A stretch of 5,872 nt of DNA, from the IMG/VR virus record IMGVR_UViG_3300011888_000020. The stretch is one strand, 5' to 3'. Made by a program: the position numbers and the translations under genes. Numbering within the stretch: position 1 is the first letter of the stretch; every line of letters begins with the position of its first letter. The notes beneath the pieces were generated by a model. It was not told the DNA's origin. It ran no database searches and saw only the letters and a program-made list of their open reading frames with translations. The DNA is from a virus (Duplodnaviria > Heunggongvirae > Uroviricota > Caudoviricetes). Shown here piece by piece: positions 4 through 5,822 of this stretch.

Positions 4-57
4 TTACTTGTTCAGGTTGTATTGTTCTTTCTTTGTAATTTGTTGATTTTCTTGCAT
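4..57 (-). other. Short ttcA-like 5' coding fragment at the prophage left junction (17 codons, MQENQQITKKEQYNLNK, then TAA at 4-6)
   Basis: Minus-strand ATG at 57-55 translates to MQENQQITKKEQYNLNK, which I recognise as the N-terminus of E. coli TtcA, the gene Rac is known to integrate into. The frame hits TAA at 6-4 instead of continuing. Too short and too close to the window edge to call a gene. Confidence 0.3.
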
Positions 58-108
58 TATTTCAGTTCTCTGGTACTAAATGGGGCAAATTGGGGGCAAA
101 CTTTGCAA

Positions 109-1344
109 CTACGATAACCGCGCATTCAACATGGCTATCTGTTCGTCGTTCATGTCATCAATCCACATACCGTAAATTTCATACACCATCTGCGCAGTTT
201 CATGCCCCATTTGGCTGGCTATAAATGCCGGGTTCGCTCCTGCCGTCAACAGCCAGCAGGCAAAAGTATGCCGCGTATGGTACGGATTACGGCGGCGAAT
301 ACCAGCACGTTTTACTGCTGCATTCCACCTTGCCCCCAAACTGCTTACCGAGTAATAAGGTTTTTGTTTTCCGTTACACACCCTGGGCATGAAAACAAAA
401 TGCAGTTTTTGCTTTTCGGTTCTGCCGTACTCCCGATGATAAAAGGTGATTTCGCTTTTGCGATGATGCCCGGTCAGTTTGTATTGCTCCTTCAGTGCTT
501 CAAGAGCAGGCTGCAGTAGTGTTACTGTTCGGATCCCGGCATTTGTTTTTGGGGGACCGAACATATCAAGTATCGTCAGGTTTCTTCTGACATTCACTAT
601 TCCCTTTTCGAGATCCACATCCTCCCACGCCAGAGCTGCCAGTTCCCCGTGACGAAGTCCTGAGTAAACGGCAAATTTCCACAAGTTCTGGCTCTGTCCT
701 TTTTCACTTTCCATTAATGCATTGAATTCTGTTTTAGATAACGGATCAGGCTTTATTCTGTTTCGCTGTAATTTTTTTACTCCTTCAAATGGTTTGGTTG
801 ATATAAATCCCGACTGATACGCAAAACGCAACAGCGAACAGAGCAGGGCGATATAGTTATCAACTGTGCGCACGGTTCTTCCTTTTTTGTTGGATCTTGG
901 ATTATCCAGGTAAAGCGTTTCTCCATGCAGCAGTTCATTCCGGTAGTTTAAGATATCGCTATAACGAATATGTGATATCGGGGTACTTTCACAAATTATT
1001 ATTCTGAGTGTTTTTAATTGTGATTTCGTTTTCTTCATTGTGTTTGTTGTTAACTCTGTCTCTTTAATTTTTGTCCAGATATCACAAAGCTCTCCGAACG
1101 TTTTTATGACTCTCGTTGTCACCATTTTTGCCCCAGTGCTGGACTGGGGAAAACGTCTTAAATACTCAAATTCACCGGAGTTTATTTCATGAACTATCAG
1201 CGATCTTAAATTTCCGGCCTTTTTAATATTACTGTTTGTAATCTCCCAGCCTTTTAATGTTTCCCGACATCGTTTTCCTCGAAACATGAACCAGATGCGA
1301 ATGTATCTACCTCTAATCTCGACACCTGTTGGTAATTTAGACAT
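109..1344 (-). CDS. intR: Phage tyrosine integrase (Rac prophage IntR), 411 aa
   Basis: ATG at 1344-1342 to TAG at 111-109. Translation carries tyrosine-recombinase hallmarks: GLRHGEL (box I Arg), HTRHTFA (H-x-x-R) and C-terminal GHETAQMVYEIYGMW with the catalytic Tyr. The start lies 1 nt after the ydaQ stop, a classic xis-int arrangement. The protein matches my memory of K-12 IntR. Confidence 0.93.
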   Translation of the reverse strand: MSKLPTGVEIRGRYIRIWFMFRGKRCRETLKGWEITNSNIKKAGNLRSLIVHEINSGEFEYLRRFPQSSTGAKMVTTRVIKTFGELCDIWTKIKETELTTNTMKKTKSQLKTLRIIICESTPISHIRYSDILNYRNELLHGETLYLDNPRSNKKGRTVRTVDNYIALLCSLLRFAYQSGFISTKPFEGVKKLQRNRIKPDPLSKTEFNALMESEKGQSQNLWKFAVYSGLRHGELAALAWEDVDLEKGIVNVRRNLTILDMFGPPKTNAGIRTVTLLQPALEALKEQYKLTGHHRKSEITFYHREYGRTEKQKLHFVFMPRVCNGKQKPYYSVSSLGARWNAAVKRAGIRRRNPYHTRHTFACWLLTAGANPAFIASQMGHETAQMVYEIYGMWIDDMNDEQIAMLNARLS

Positions 1345-1345
1345 A

Positions 1346-1561
1346 TCATGAGTCTTTGATAAACTGATTTATCTTTGGATAGTTGTACCAGATAATCCCT
1401 CGTTTGCTGTCTGGCTTACCTAAAGGAGATACTCGTTTGAAGTGGAAGCCCTCCACCCAACAGTTCTGGCGGTATGCTTCAATTTGTCTGGCCCCCAGAC
1501 CAGTGCGAAGCATCAGGCCGTATTCAACCATCCACTCTTCATTAAAGATTACTTGTGCCAT
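1346..1561 (-). CDS. ydaQ: Small excisionase-like protein (YdaQ/XisR), 71 aa
   Basis: ATG at 1561-1559 is preceded by GAGGTGA. The track's longer ORF begins at a TTG at 1585 with no Shine-Dalgarno. The stop TGA at 1348-1346 is 1 nt from the int[19 protein letters not shown]... matches my memory of Rac YdaQ. Confidence 0.82.
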
Positions 1562-1639
1562 CGCATCACCTCTGGCAGGCGCCAATGTTAGACTGAAATT
1601 GACGCCCGATGTTGATTATTAATAATCAGCTATGAAGTT

Positions 1640-1849
1640 TTAATTTGAATACAATGCAATTCTCGAGGACTGAAGTTTCTCGCAATTAAAATTTATCAGT
1701 TTTACTTTCTGCTCTCTGGAAACGCCTGCTTCTTTTTTACCTGAGAGCATTTTTTCGCATTCTGATTTCGTTAGTTTAGATTTTGAATATCTTGTCCAGT
1801 TAGTAGAAGTGCCACCTTCCTTTTCAATAGTGGCGGTAATTTTATACAT
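1640..1849 (-). CDS. ydaC: Rac prophage small protein YdaC, function unknown, 69 aa
   Basis: ATG at 1849-1847 is preceded by a strong GGAGG (minus strand, rc of 1851-1860) with a 5-nt spacer. The track's 93-aa version starts at ATG 1921 with no Shine-Dalgarno and overlaps ralR. MYKITATIEKEGG... matches my memory of YdaC. Confidence 0.78.
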   Translation of the reverse strand: MYKITATIEKEGGTSTNWTRYSKSKLTKSECEKMLSGKKEAGVSREQKVKLINFNCEKLQSSRIALYSN

Positions 1850-2036
1850 GAACACCTCCATTATTATTTCCAGTGGTTCGTTTATTCCATCTTTCGAGTG
1901 CTTCTTTTTCACTTCCACCATAACCGGTTCGGGATTCGCATCCGTTACACTTCGCTCGGTAATATCCTGAAATGGCTTTCACCGTTACTGATGGACAACC
2001 ACAAAATGGACATGGTTTAACATTGTCATATCTCAT
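1842..2036 (-). CDS. ralR: RalR / Lar-family restriction alleviation protein, 64 aa, four-Cys zinc-ribbon-like motif
   Basis: ATG at 2036-2034; an in-frame ATG 12 nt upstream (2048-2046) is an alternative start. The protein MRYDNVKPCPFCGC...KCNGC has CxxC...CxxC. Its 3' end overlaps the ydaC start by 8 nt. Matches my memory of K-12 RalR. Confidence 0.85.
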   Translation of the reverse strand: MRYDNVKPCPFCGCPSVTVKAISGYYRAKCNGCESRTGYGGSEKEALERWNKRTTGNNNGGVHV

Positions 2037-2063
2037 AATTTTTCTCATAAAAAATATTTCAAG

Positions 2064-2086
2064 TTGGCGGTGCATTACACCGCCAG
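2064..2086. promoter_or_regulatory. Intergenic stem-loop between recT stop and ralR start (GGCGGTG / CACCGCC, 5-nt loop)
   Basis: A perfect 7-bp GC-rich inverted repeat at 2066-2072 / 2078-2084, extendable by one T-A pair and a wobble pair. On the minus-strand transcript it is followed after about 10 nt by a U-run (AACUUGAAAUAUUUUUU) just before the ralR ATG. Confidence 0.4.
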
Positions 2087-2092
2087 GCTGAA

Positions 2093-2902
2093 TTATTCCT
2101 CTGAATTATCGATTACACTGTATTCCCCGGTTAATACAGAGGAATCTGCAGGATCGATTGTCAGTGGTTCCTTTTCATCCATTGATACTGCACGCTGGAT
2201 CTCAATTGATACGGGCAGATATTTGAACAGGCGACGAATAGCCGTTTTCTTTGCCATTTCTTCCCAGTGAGTTACCCACGGCCCGTTATTACCAGCTTTA
2301 CTCAGGCTGCGCACCAGCTCAATCTGTTTGCGCGTCATAACTTCAAACTGAGTACCTCCGTCTTTCAGTCTTGCGACAGCATAGACGTGGGTAACCGGGG
2401 CATCTTCGTTTTCTCCCGGGCGGTGTATTAACTTTTCATCAAGGCCAAATTCGAAGCTAAACTCGTCACCTTCACGGACAACACGGGCTGACAGGCTGGC
2501 GATTTGACCAGAACGGCGAGCCAGATCAATCATGCCGCGATAGCCAATGATTAGCTGAACGTTCTTTTTACCGCTCTTTTCGTTTTTATTACCAAAAGGC
2601 AGTAAATATGCATGACCGAGGGCGCTACCTGGCTCAAGTCCGAGCTGTGAACACTGTACGATCGCACTGACAAAACTCATAGTGTCACAGTTTCCTAACG
2701 CCGGAACTTTACGAATTTCTGTGGTGGCGATACGGATCATACGTTCAGCCGTCATATGGCGTGGAAGAGCTGCTGCCAGTTGCTCTTTCATTGATGGCTG
2801 GTTAATAAAACTAATCACGTCGCTATTTTTAACTGCTGCTGGTGCACGGTTTCCCTGAGTTTTTTGCAGATCGGCTTTTGCGATTGGTGGTTGCTTAGTC
2901 AT
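2093..2902 (-). CDS. recT: RecT single-strand annealing protein (RecT/Red-beta family), 269 aa
   Basis: ATG at 2902-2900 is preceded by AAGGA with an 8-nt spacer. The track's 288-aa ORF starts at a CTG at 2959. The stop is TAA at 2095-2093. [24 protein letters not shown]... matches my memory of K-12 RecT. The recE stop overlaps recT codons 2-3. Confidence 0.95.
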
Positions 2903-5445
2903 TTGCATATTCCTTAGCCCAGCGGGGCAGTGATAATGTCTTAATAGCTGGCCATTCATCGGTATTCAGGCAGTCAGACAGGGTTCGCAGATTGCGGTGA
3001 TATTCCTGTTGACCTGCCAGTTTTGCTTCTTCGCCCATCATGAAAATTTCAACCGGATAACGTCCGCATTCAATAGTTGTGCTGGCAACCAGAAAAACGA
3101 AAGTTGGCTGCACTCCAAACTGTGCTTCATAACCGTCACTGTAGAATGCATCCTGAACGTGATAGCGGTAGTCGTAATAAGCGGTTTNNNNNNNNNNACG
3201 GCCATGATCCAGTGAAATTCAGGGATAATTTTGTCCGGACGGCACCGACACAAAATTCCTGTTTCAGGATCTTCCCAGTAAATTGATGATTCAGCGTGTC
3301 CGGCGCTTTCAACAAGCCATTGCCCCAGCGGCAAAGCCATAACGCTTTGATACATGAGTTCAATTTTCCGGCCTTCTTCCGCAGTGATAACCGTTTTTCC
3401 TGTGCTTGCGCATTCCATCAGAAACGCTTTCTCTTCTTCTTTTCCGGCGTTTGTACGGCGGTTAAATTCAGGTGCTACGATAAAGCGGTTACTGAATTCT
3501 TCCTGTTCAAGTACCCGGCAGTGGAAAGCAGTTCCTAAATCGAGCGTTTTTGTCTTTGTGGTGTCCACGGGGGCATTTTTACGCCACAAATATAGTGCCG
3601 GAGTATCAGCAATGTCATCGAGCTGAGACTTACTGATACCGGGACCCGCGTGGTAATTCTCATTCGAAATTCCGTAATAAATACCTGGCTCTATGTCTTC
3701 TACGATTACGGGATCTGCGACTTCGCCAGTTTCATCACTGCAATCGCGATGCGGATCGCTGCCAGCATTCTCATTGTGCGGATGTTCAGCGCCTTCCATT
3801 TCCTCCGGATCATTTTCCTTAGCTTCAACCTGACTCTCTTCATCACCGCACCACAGTCAGGGCAGTTATCCCCGCCAGTCTGGCCGCAGGCATTGCAGGC
3901 TATTTCCGGTTCCTGTTGCACTACTGGCTCAGGTTGATTCATATCCGGGCTGGTTTTTTCCGTTTCTGGCTGGTTCTGGTACACACAATCGCGAGTCTGG
4001 ATCCCCTTTACCCATTTCGGATCGTTCGGGTCGCTAATTCCGTCAACAAATTCACCACGTGATGCAGCAAGCAATTTATCGGCATCGACAGGATTTTTTG
4101 ATGGAATGTTTTTCCGGGCTTCATGGAGTTCTGCCCGCAGTTCCTGATATTTCGCATCAACAGAATTTACCTGTGACTGAGCATCCAGCGGCTGCGTGTC
4201 CTGATGATGTTCAGTTGCGTCCTGTTCCATTGTTTCAGCCTCTCCCTGTTCAACTGCCGTTGTTCCAGATGGTTGCGGTTTTTCTTCATCATCCTGTTTT
4301 CCTTCTTCTGTTACTCGCTGCGGCATCGGGGCAGAGGAGCGACCGCAGGCAATATCCACGATTTCCGGATCAGGGTTGGCATGATCGGTTTCAGTCAGTA
4401 CTTTGTTCAGATATTCAGTGACGTGCGCGGGGATGACCTCGATCCCAATTGGTGCTTCTTTTACGGACGCAACCACGATGGCGCGGGAATAATCCAGCCC
4501 GCCAGGCATGGTGATGAATTTGTCGCGGAAAACAGAAAAGGGCGGTTTATTTTCAGCGATAATTTCCTCAATGCGTTTAGCGTGTGCCGGATGAAGGTTA
4601 TAGATGTCCAGATCCATTGAACGGGCCAGTACGCCAGTGGCTACGTCGCGCGCCAGTGACGTCAGATCGTGTACGAAACCTTCGCCGCGATCGGTGAGGC
4701 TTCCGCCGCCAGCATTAGCACCGGAAGCCGTGCGAGTGATGTGTGAAACACGATTACCCTTCATCCACTCTTTTGTCAGCAGTCCTCGATCGGTGTAGTC
4801 AGCGTTCAGGTATGCTTCGAAAAAAGCAGTTATCAGTCCCAGGTTTGAATTACCAGGATTAGGGAAAACTTTGTCAGTGTCACGAACCAGTTTGTGGAGT
4901 TCGCGAATTTCCAGCGGGTCGAGCAGGCTGGTTTTGTGGGAAACAGCCAGGGCAGTAACAGCCGGTAGTTCTTCAGCCCGAGCAATGTGTAATGCCTGGA
5001 GTCCGTCGCGTGAAACGTGCGTTACCGGTTTTTCGCTGCCGTGTTGAGCAAGCCAACGAATGGGCAGTTCCTGGCCAGAAATTGGGAGTAGCATATTCTC
5101 CTCAATCTCAGTCATGTCTTCGCCGTTGACGTTGGTATTGCCTTGATAGTGAGCGTTGTCTGGTGCTGCTCCCGGTTTTAGTTCCCATGTCATGGAGTCT
5201 TTGCTGAGTTGATAGCGTTCACTCCAGGTAAAATCGATCTCACCTTCAGCGGGCAGGTCATTAACGACAGGAAAATTCGTGGCAACAGCTTTAAAATAGC
5301 TGCTCAGTTTTTTACCTGACTTAACGATCAGGTAGTCCAGAGTGGCACAGGTCGATTCAAAATCGTTGCTTGCCCACAGGACGACGTCAGGTTCACCGGA
5401 TGATTTTTTCGCTTTCCGTAACAGGAAGAGTGGTTTTGTGCTCAT
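2895..5445 (-). pseudogene. recE: recE (exonuclease VIII), disrupted in this sequence by a frameshift after codon 535 and an N-run in the nuclease domain
   Basis: Three minus-strand ORFs in three different frames each match contiguous parts of RecE: 5445-3706 (residues 1-535 plus a 44-aa out-of-frame tail), 3799-3198 (MEGAEHP...[14 protein letters not shown]) and 3187-2895 ([29 protein letters not shown]...KEYAND). The start ATG at 5445-5443 has GAGG upstream. The stop TAA at 2897-2895 overlaps the recT start. Confidence 0.88.
3188..3197. other. Run of 10 N (assembly gap or masked bases) inside the recE nuclease domain
   Basis: Directly visible in the sequence. It sits between the third base of the Val codon at 3199-3197 and the first base of the Lys codon at 3188-3186. 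The recE frame differs on the two sides, so the N count does not equal the true length. Confidence 0.95.
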
Positions 5446-5546: not shown

Positions 5547-5822
5547 TCAGATTTCACCTTTTAATTTCATTGCAATTAGAGTTGCCAGAAATTCGGCTTT
5601 TTTTTCTGTGGGCAGATTCTTTCCGATATGCACCAGGCACATTTTTTTGACACCTTCATCAAGTGTTTTTACGTTGCCTGATGGACCATCGATATCAACC
5701 ACAGTGAATGGGGTTTCTTTATTTTCTGTTTTAATTACGTAGCCAATGCGCTTTCCTTCCAGATTCACCTCGTGAACAATGTCATCGGTAGTTACAACAG
5801 TGGCTTCATAATTGGTAATCAT
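5547..5822 (-). CDS. racC: Rac prophage protein RacC, function unknown, 91 aa
   Basis: ATG at 5822-5820 is preceded by AAGGAG with a 6-nt spacer; the stop is TGA at 5549-5547. MITNYEATVVTTDDIVHEV... matches my memory of RacC. The start overlaps the upstream ORF's stop as ATGA. Confidence 0.85.
   Translation of the reverse strand: MITNYEATVVTTDDIVHEVNLEGKRIGYVIKTENKETPFTVVDIDGPSGNVKTLDEGVKKMCLVHIGKNLPTEKKAEFLATLIAMKLKGEI

Follow-up and report, generated by a model that had tools for sequence, protein, structure and literature searches.

The plus-strand interval 1665-1843 of the DNA analysed here is very probably ralA, the known Hfq-dependent antitoxin small RNA of the Rac RalR/RalA type I toxin-antitoxin pair, and the antitoxin gene that was missing from an earlier reading of this sequence is now located. 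The window, by which we mean the whole stretch of 5872 bases, is, judged by its sequence, the integrase-bearing left end of Rac, a cryptic prophage of E. coli, with the gene order ttcA′ - intR - xisR - rcbA - ralR - recT - recE - racC. The RalR/RalA locus that it carries is already known, as it is the same locus that was described by Guo et al. in 2014 (PMC4041452). The first-pass annotation had proposed a RalR/RalA locus with RalA encoded nearby, and this proved correct, as the matches to the Rfam family RF02694 and to K-12 b4714 adjoin ralR. It had also held that RalA could not be placed, which is true of a reading without tools, but a covariance model and the reference annotation together give 1665-1843 on the plus strand. 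Neither of the places that it had put forward, an AT-rich stretch at 1599-1660 and a hairpin at 2066-2084, is the site of RalA; the body of the gene lies between the two, antisense to rcbA, a location that the annotation had left out of account.

The identity, position and orientation of ralA, together with its pairing segment, were observed in the present analysis; its 5′ end, its activity in trans, the compensatory mutations, the binding of Hfq and the toxicity and DNase activity of RalR have been reported in the K-12 literature.

The ralA gene and its surroundings in Rac

When all Rfam families were scanned against the window, the sole match was RF02694 (RalA), at 1665-1843 on the plus strand, with 224 bits (gathering score 170), an E value of 2e-54 and coverage of model positions 1-179 of 179. 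The ralA gene of K-12 (b4714, 1413556-1413734 on the plus strand) falls on exactly the same positions and is identical at 178 of 179 nucleotides. The lone difference, G to A at window position 1807 (RalA nt 143), turns a U.G pair of a long-range helix (helix 2) into a U-A pair, replaces Pro15 of RcbA with Ser (P15S) and is common to at least 30 sequenced strains. Gene coordinates in the window are those of the K-12 annotation transferred by alignment, supplemented by family matches where these are given:

Up to 57, minus strand: 5′ end of ttcA
109-1344, minus strand: intR
1346-1561, minus strand: xisR
1640-1849, minus strand: rcbA/ydaC (K-12 b1347 mapping; PF06688, NF007283)
1665-1843, plus strand: ralA, 179-nt sRNA antitoxin gene (Rfam RF02694; K-12 b4714 mapping)
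1842-2036, minus strand: ralR (lar), 64-aa Lar-family protein (K-12 b1348 identity; NF007260, TIGR03655, PF14354)
2093-2902, minus strand: recT
about 2895-5445, minus strand: recE, interrupted in the window
5547-5822, minus strand: racC

RalA is thus encoded entirely within rcbA/ydaC, on the antisense strand, and is convergent with ralR, whose stop codon it overlaps by 2 nt. The published K-12 Rac system (PMC4041452; RF02694; b4714, b1348) has the same locus, gene order and orientation as the window, as well as the same 16-nt pairing segments, 5′ stem-loop and terminator-like hairpin; the differences are the substitution at 1807 in ralA and the interruption of recE in the window. Over window positions 8-3187, alignment with K-12 MG1655 (NC_000913.3) revealed three substitutions. 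A megablast search with positions 1300-2400 found this part of the window in 1,935 genomes among the 5,426 complete ones of E. coli; many of the matches are 100% identical, and their annotation reads intR, xisR, rcbA, ralR and recT.

The ralR reading frame with a CxxC...CxxC motif that the first-pass annotation had noticed is borne out, with C9-P-F-C12 and C30-N-G-C33 in the 64-aa product, and the interval that it had given for the locus, 1842-2092, corresponds to ralR plus the 56-nt recT-ralR spacer, with the end of recT at 2093. The protein is 100% identical to K-12 RalR (b1348) and exceeds the cut-offs of the NCBIfam equivalog NF007260 'RalR' (166 bits, cut-off 113), of TIGR03655 Lar (55.3 bits, cut-off 39.6) and of Pfam PF14354 (53.5 bits, cut-off 28.6). 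Among alleles, 20 of the 30 variable sites in ralR are at the third codon position (p = 0.0002). A sequence search of the PDB with RalR gave no meaningful relative. By sequence, RalR is a member of the Lar and lambda Ral restriction-alleviation proteins (TIGR03655, PF14354), and it was first described as Lar (King and Murray 1995); in PMC4041452, by contrast with the restriction alleviation of the Lar family, the reported activity is DNase toxicity. A promoter-like sequence at 2062-2035 on the minus strand was considered as the ralR promoter and rejected because its −10 element overlaps the ralR start codon.

Ends and fold of RalA

The features discussed from here on are the following:

1650-1655, plus strand: probable RalA −10 element, TACAAT, at −12 to −7 of the dRNA-seq start site 1662
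1666-1703, plus strand: RalA 5′ stem-loop (nt 2-39), on which the Rfam consensus structure and the RNAfold minimum free energy (MFE) fold concur
1727-1742, plus strand: RalA nt 63-78, the pairing segment, UGCUUCUUUUUUACCU, repeated directly at 1899-1914
1810-1843, plus strand: RalA terminator-like hairpin with UUUU (stem 1810-1815 / 1830-1835, U4 at 1840-1843)
1899-1914, minus strand: RalA target in ralR mRNA, AAGUGAAAAAGAAGCA (CDS nt 123-138, codons 41-46, GSEKEA)
2053-2097 (core 2066-2084), minus strand: recT-ralR intercistronic hairpin, from an inverted repeat and RNA folding

Two methods have mapped the 5′ end of RalA in K-12. In PMC4041452, primer extension placed it 62 nt before the 16-nt repeat and, because the repeat starts at 1727, the +1 position corresponds to window 1665. 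Differential RNA-seq gave a transcription start site for ralA at K-12 position 1413553 (PMC7967276, supplementary table 1), which is window 1662, 3 nt upstream of the annotated ralA start, and the same paper reported RNA fragments starting GAGGACTGAAGT, which is window 1665-1676. The transcript 5′-end sequence, GAGGACUGAAGU, is identical in the window and in K-12.

Upstream of these ends, TACAAT at 1650-1655, which we assign to the xisR-rcbA spacer, is the probable −10 element of the RalA promoter; it becomes TATAAT in three alleles (L014-L016, variation at 1652), and no good −35 element was found for it. The AT-rich stretch at 1599-1660 is real (29% G+C, compared with 46% for the window), and the idea that it harbours RNA signals survives only as regards this probable promoter, the gene body being downstream. 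A promoter-like site in the same stretch, TTGACG-16-AATAAT (1599-1626 on the plus strand, 10 of 12 matches), was rejected for RalA because it would put the start of transcription some 30 nt upstream of the two mapped 5′ ends, and because it lies outside the insert of a plasmid that still gives antitoxin activity. That insert, in pCA24N-ralR-ralA, runs from the ralR start codon to the ydaC stop codon (PMC4041452), which corresponds to window 1640-2036, so that only 25 nt upstream of RalA +1 are retained.

For the 3′ end, the literature offers a prediction, based on a 5-bp stem, a 14-nt loop and four U (PMC4041452). In the window, the corresponding hairpin has 6 bp, a 14-nt loop and a folding energy of −6.6 kcal/mol, and its U-run starts four bases past the stem; a generic terminator scan of both strands of 1340-2300 called no terminator. 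In the portion of the Term-seq supplementary tables (eLife 62438) available to us, the names ralA, ralR, rcbA and ydaC are absent. RalA has been listed among the least often detected K-12 genes, with detection in 61 of 3,325 RNA-seq samples (PMC10392735), and a literature search for RalA with RIL-seq found no report; two papers on the Rac prophage do no more than cite Guo et al. (2014).

The 5′ hairpin of RalA has been called stabilising (PMC4041452). As a whole, the fold of RalA is not more stable than those of shuffled sequences (z = −0.76), and an alignment of 14 sequences gave no significant covariation for the Rfam structure, a weak test given the low diversity of these sequences. Three pairs are changed on both sides, a count reached by 50 of 500 shuffles, while the covariation score was reached by 81 of 500, and most departures in the alignment break pairs. 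An alternative in which the core of the seed occupies an apical loop (inverted repeat 1710-1722 / 1737-1749) was discarded, as it lies about 5 kcal/mol above the MFE.

Pairing of RalA with the ralR message

The position of the 16-nt repeat agrees with the published one, RalA nt 63-78, 62 nt from the 5′ end. Between 1727-1742 and 1899-1914 there are 11 contiguous Watson-Crick pairs and, over all 16 positions, 14 Watson-Crick pairs, one G.U pair and one mismatch; the isolated 16-mer duplex has an energy of −17.5 kcal/mol. The two pairing segments appear as direct repeats because both lie in minus-strand coding sequences, encoding GSEKEA in ralR and GKKEA in rcbA, and on the plus strand they form the longest and top-ranking direct repeat within 1560-2100. 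Part of the seed, RalA nt 63-70, is predicted to be paired within RalA.

Statistically, this pairing exceeds chance only weakly. Among 1000 dinucleotide shuffles of RalA, 16 reached an 11-nt run of complementarity to the ralR reading frame. When every 16-mer of ralR mRNA was compared with both strands of the entire window, a search that the first-pass annotation had suggested, 1727-1742 was indeed the single best hit (14/16), but 43 of 100 block-shuffled windows contained a hit as good or better, and complementarity alone therefore could not have placed RalA. Elsewhere in the window, at 699-709 and 4452-4462, there are unrelated 11-nt matches to the A-rich segment of ralR. A global RNAduplex comparison of RalA with ralR mRNA was set aside as uninformative, since the long duplexes it returned were spurious and 41 shuffles in 1000 did as well. 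The pairing gains its weight from its position inside the match to the RalA model and from published genetics.

In those experiments, purified RalR degraded DNA and its over-production was toxic, and a plasmid with the ralR reading frame alone was neutralised by RalA supplied from a second plasmid. Point mutants in the seed weakened antitoxin activity and a four-base seed mutant abolished it, while a matching synonymous change in ralR restored the activity of the four-base mutant. RalA lowered the level of RalR protein and not that of ralR mRNA, and Hfq turned out to bind RalA, to stabilise it and to be required for antitoxin activity; an EMSA was also reported in that study (all PMC4041452).

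Taken with the map given above, these reports point to a mechanism in which RalA would be transcribed from the weak promoter with TACAAT at 1650-1655, antisense across all of rcbA, and would end at a weak hairpin and U4 overlapping the ralR stop codon by 2 nt; nucleotides 63-78 would then pair with codons 41-46 of ralR mRNA and, with the required participation of Hfq, less RalR protein would be made. Of this scheme, we infer the promoter, the 3′ end and the way in which pairing deep in the coding region might block translation.

Alleles and diverged loci

Twelve further alleles were aligned with the window, comprising ten from E. coli (91-99% identical), the K-12 reference and one from E. ruysiae, and two diverged loci, from Citrobacter braakii (L008) and from a MAG (L009), were analysed separately. 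In 10 of the 12 alleles, neither partner has a change in the 11-nt pairing core. One of the other two (L017) has a change in the core that gives a G.U pair, and the second (L018, strain CEC15) has a 12-nt deletion that removes RalA nt 59-70, is in frame for rcbA and leaves ralR intact. Co-variation of the two 16-nt segments was considered and discarded as a source of evidence, given that there is almost no variation within E. coli and that the pairing is absent in diverged homologues. In the C. braakii and MAG loci, the homologues of ralR and rcbA are intact and adjacent; the segments homologous to the pairing sites are unmatched, and the longest complementary run, 7-8 nt, equals the mean for shuffled sequences.

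RalA scores above the Rfam threshold were obtained only for Rac-type alleles, for instance in E. ruysiae (220 bits) and L025 (218 bits). The model reaches 35 bits in the C. braakii locus and 29 bits in the MAG locus, with many broken pairs, and, when placed antisense to DUF1187 genes, it scores 24-38 bits overall, 29-38 bits in diverged ralR-rcbA loci and 24-30 bits where ralR is absent. Judged by these comparisons, the sub-threshold scores reflect similarity of DUF1187 coding sequence and no conserved small RNA. Three other loci (L021-L023) carry DUF1187 genes, with 60-62% identity, that follow a Dam-like methyltransferase or an unrelated reading frame of 64 aa, and no Lar/RalR gene was found near them. 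In two further loci (L024 and L025), a ralR homologue that had not been called as a gene is present.

Several of these results would also be expected if the plus-strand transcript were low-level antisense noise. The repeat would then have arisen by coincidence, from two coding sequences that each specify (K/E)-K-E-A, and the antitoxin effect would be seen upon over-expression and play no part at native levels. The 16-nt match is no better than chance, and each of its copies, GSEKEA in ralR and GKKEA in rcbA, is in codons subject to protein selection. The −35 element and the terminator are weak, detection of RalA is very rare, the structure does not covary, a natural allele has lost the seed while ralR remains intact, and the sub-threshold scores track DUF1187 coding similarity. 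Nevertheless, we regard this reading as quite improbable: the transcription start site is reproducible by two methods, some alleles have improved the −10 element to TATAAT, Hfq binding and Hfq-dependent stability have been reported, and the compensatory-mutation genetics favours pairing (PMC4041452). Deletion of ydaC has, in addition, been linked to more double-strand breaks, which fits the loss of RalA (PMC4041452, Discussion).

The gene around RalA

The assignment of 1665-1843 to ralA implies that the small RNA shares its DNA with a second gene, and our data on that gene disagree with the published account. Guo et al. concluded that ydaC encodes no protein, as a His-tagged product was not seen and as mutants in its start codon and with an early stop retained antitoxin activity (PMC4041452). 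Such mutants establish that antitoxin activity needs no protein; the absence of a protein product is not thereby demonstrated. RcbA matches Pfam DUF1187 (PF06688) with 126.5 bits and NCBIfam NF007283 with 136 bits, and 19 of the 31 sites that vary among alleles are at the third codon position (p = 0.0013). Its dN/dS is 0.09 between E. coli and C. braakii and 0.05 between C. braakii and the MAG, and the reading frame is intact at 60% amino-acid identity. This pattern of substitution marks rcbA as a protein-coding gene under purifying selection, contrary to PMC4041452. With its ATG, rcbA overlaps the stop of ralR by 8 nt, which suggests a ralR-rcbA bicistronic message, and no terminator was called between the two genes. 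Such a message would be a perfect complement of RalA over its full length.

One might then ask whether RalA is mainly a cis-antisense RNA of such a ralR-rcbA message, with the 16-nt trans site being secondary and lineage-specific. In that case, the 179-bp perfect duplex with the rcbA part would be a substrate for RNase III, and the effect would be coupled to ralR through the stop/start overlap. The location of RalA fully inside rcbA on the opposite strand, the 8-nt overlap with no terminator between, and the reality of rcbA as a gene under selection are all in line with this idea, as are the chance-level 16-nt match and its loss in diverged loci; leakage through the weak terminator would also carry RalA antisense into ralR. 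Against it, a ralR-only plasmid containing no rcbA sequence is neutralised by RalA in trans, seed mutations abolish neutralisation and matching ralR mutations restore it, and added RalA does not reduce ralR mRNA (PMC4041452). Because of the two-plasmid and compensatory-mutation experiments, we rank this possibility below the published trans mechanism and consider it unlikely. We give a similarly modest chance to a version of it in which RalA is above all a cis-antisense RNA of rcbA, a gene carried on the bicistronic message, and the 16-nt trans pairing is a recent by-product, specific to E. coli Rac, of the shared motif encoding KEA.

The selection acting on rcbA could also be taken to mean that the RcbA protein, described as a 'double-strand break reduction protein', is the partner that matters for RalR, as a proteic inhibitor or a cofactor, rather than any RNA. 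The gene is translationally coupled to ralR by the overlap and under strong purifying selection, and the ralR-rcbA pair is retained in diverged loci that lack the RalA pairing. However, antitoxin activity persists in the ydaC start-codon and early-stop mutants (PMC4041452), and there are DUF1187 genes, 60-62% identical, that have no Lar/RalR gene near them, so that the protein does not depend on RalR. As an obligate partner of RalR, RcbA was rejected because DUF1187 genes exist without RalR, and we consider the protein-partner reading as a whole very unlikely.

The recT-ralR hairpin

The hairpin that had been noticed at 2066-2084 is real: GGCGGTG-CATTA-CACCGCC forms the core of an inverted repeat with 20-nt arms (2053-2072 / 2078-2097). 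As minus-strand RNA it has an energy of −24 kcal/mol (z = −5.4), and none of 200 shuffles was as stable. The suggestion that it might be a site for RalA is not upheld, as it is an element of the mRNA strand upstream of ralR and is unrelated to RalA. The recT stop codon falls within it, and 17 nt separate its end from the ralR start. In 12 of 12 alleles, including four with a different RecT-family gene upstream, the core stem, UGGCGGUG...CACCGCCA, is the same, while the loop and flanks vary. No U-run is adjacent to it, and the generic scan calls no terminator there. We conjecture that it is probably an intercistronic RNA element, for example one that acts in RNA processing or stability or as a partial terminator.

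Comparison with other type I systems

RalR/RalA resembles TisB/IstR-1, ShoB/OhsC and ZorO/OrzO in that a short small RNA antitoxin with its own promoter is encoded beside the toxin gene, and in that the two RNAs pair over 16-21 nt with no full antisense overlap, a likeness already drawn in PMC4041452. The differences are considerable. TisB, ShoB and ZorO are small membrane peptides, whereas RalR is a 64-aa zinc-ribbon-like Lar protein reported to be a DNase; the antitoxins of those systems pair with a 5′ UTR or standby site, whereas RalA pairs deep in the coding region. Unlike these systems, moreover, RalA needs Hfq and its gene lies inside another protein gene. With Hok/Sok, Ibs/Sib and SymE/SymR, RalR/RalA has in common that the antitoxin RNA comes from the other strand of the toxin locus. 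In contrast to those pairs, RalA and ralR overlap by only 2 nt, and the full antisense partner of RalA is rcbA.

Implications

About one complete E. coli genome in three carries the RalR/RalA locus, a textbook system. Its antitoxin gene is not recognisable by complementarity or structure alone, and bona fide RalA is restricted to Rac-type alleles of Escherichia and Shigella. If RalA were to prove mainly a cis-antisense RNA, Guo et al. would be wrong in stating that ydaC encodes no protein, and the physiological regulation of ralR and rcbA would pass through the 179-bp overlap. Annotations of this locus should retain both RalA and its host gene, rcbA.

rcbA as a Protein-Coding Gene

The paper that defined RalA (PMC4041452) concluded that ydaC, also named rcbA, encodes no protein. 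In our comparison of homologous loci, the gene evolves as a protein-coding one, and we list it as follows.

1640-1849, minus strand: rcbA/ydaC, evolving as a protein-coding gene

Its variable sites are in excess at the third codon position (p = 0.0013), dN/dS lies between 0.05 and 0.09, and the match to DUF1187 scores 126 bits. The open reading frame has 69 aa both in K-12 and in the window, and 62 aa in most other alleles, where a stop lies at codon 63. Genes of the DUF1187 family with 60-62% identity sit at the same place in the prophage, directly before the excisionase and integrase genes, in three loci from Logan assemblies (L021-L023), of which one, P0068, carries the name Klebsiella oxytoca. 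No Lar/RalR gene accompanies the DUF1187 gene in these three loci; the DUF1187 gene has a 13-nt overlap with the end of either a Dam-like methyltransferase gene or an unrelated small ORF.

Natural Variants of ralA and ralR

In E. coli CEC15 (L018, NZ_CP133657.1), a 12-nt deletion, the counterpart of window 1723-1734, removes RalA nt 59-70; half of the segment that pairs is thereby lost, 8 of the 11 core bases among it. The deletion keeps the rcbA reading frame, and the ralR gene of this strain is complete, with no difference from K-12. In E. coli strain 222 (L019, NZ_CP020516.1), ralR has a premature stop (W50*, the counterpart of window 1887), the annotated product being 49 aa long. Several further genomes, one of them an O157:H7 strain, have a BLAST score equal to that of L019, the score alone being compared.

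Records and Assembly

Two records bear the names of unrelated organisms on sequence of the E. coli Rac segment, namely, a MAG labelled "uncultured Roseburia sp." (L005) and Actinobacillus phage vB_Apl-pPE4 (H76, PP818812.1). They are identical or 90.6% identical to the segment in the window; the Roseburia label probably stems from bin contamination, and PP818812.1 is probably mislabelled or derived from E. coli.

In the window itself, recE is interrupted at 3188-3197, a run of 10 N that corresponds to 29 bases in K-12, and at 3840/3841, where a 31-nt K-12 stretch flanked by a CATC repeat is absent after position 3840. This loss shifts the frame, leaving ORFs at 3706-5445 and 3038-3799, and the region needs three alignment pieces even against the best-matching complete genomes. 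The interruption resembles an artefact of assembly or masking, or else a private deletion.

A Hairpin and a Candidate Operator

We list two further sequence elements.

2053-2097, minus strand: strong intercistronic hairpin between recT and ralR (z = -5.4)
1614-1627: perfect 14-nt palindrome, GATTATTAATAATC, midway between the divergent xisR and ralA transcription starts

The core stem of the hairpin is unchanged across alleles with different loops, different flanks and even a different recombinase gene upstream. The palindrome spans the -35 regions of both xisR (listed transcription starts K-12 1413467/1413473, window 1576/1582, minus strand) and ralA (listed start window 1662, plus strand); in a consensus scan it reads as two back-to-back -10-like hexamers. 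It is a candidate operator for a regulator that xisR and ralA would share.
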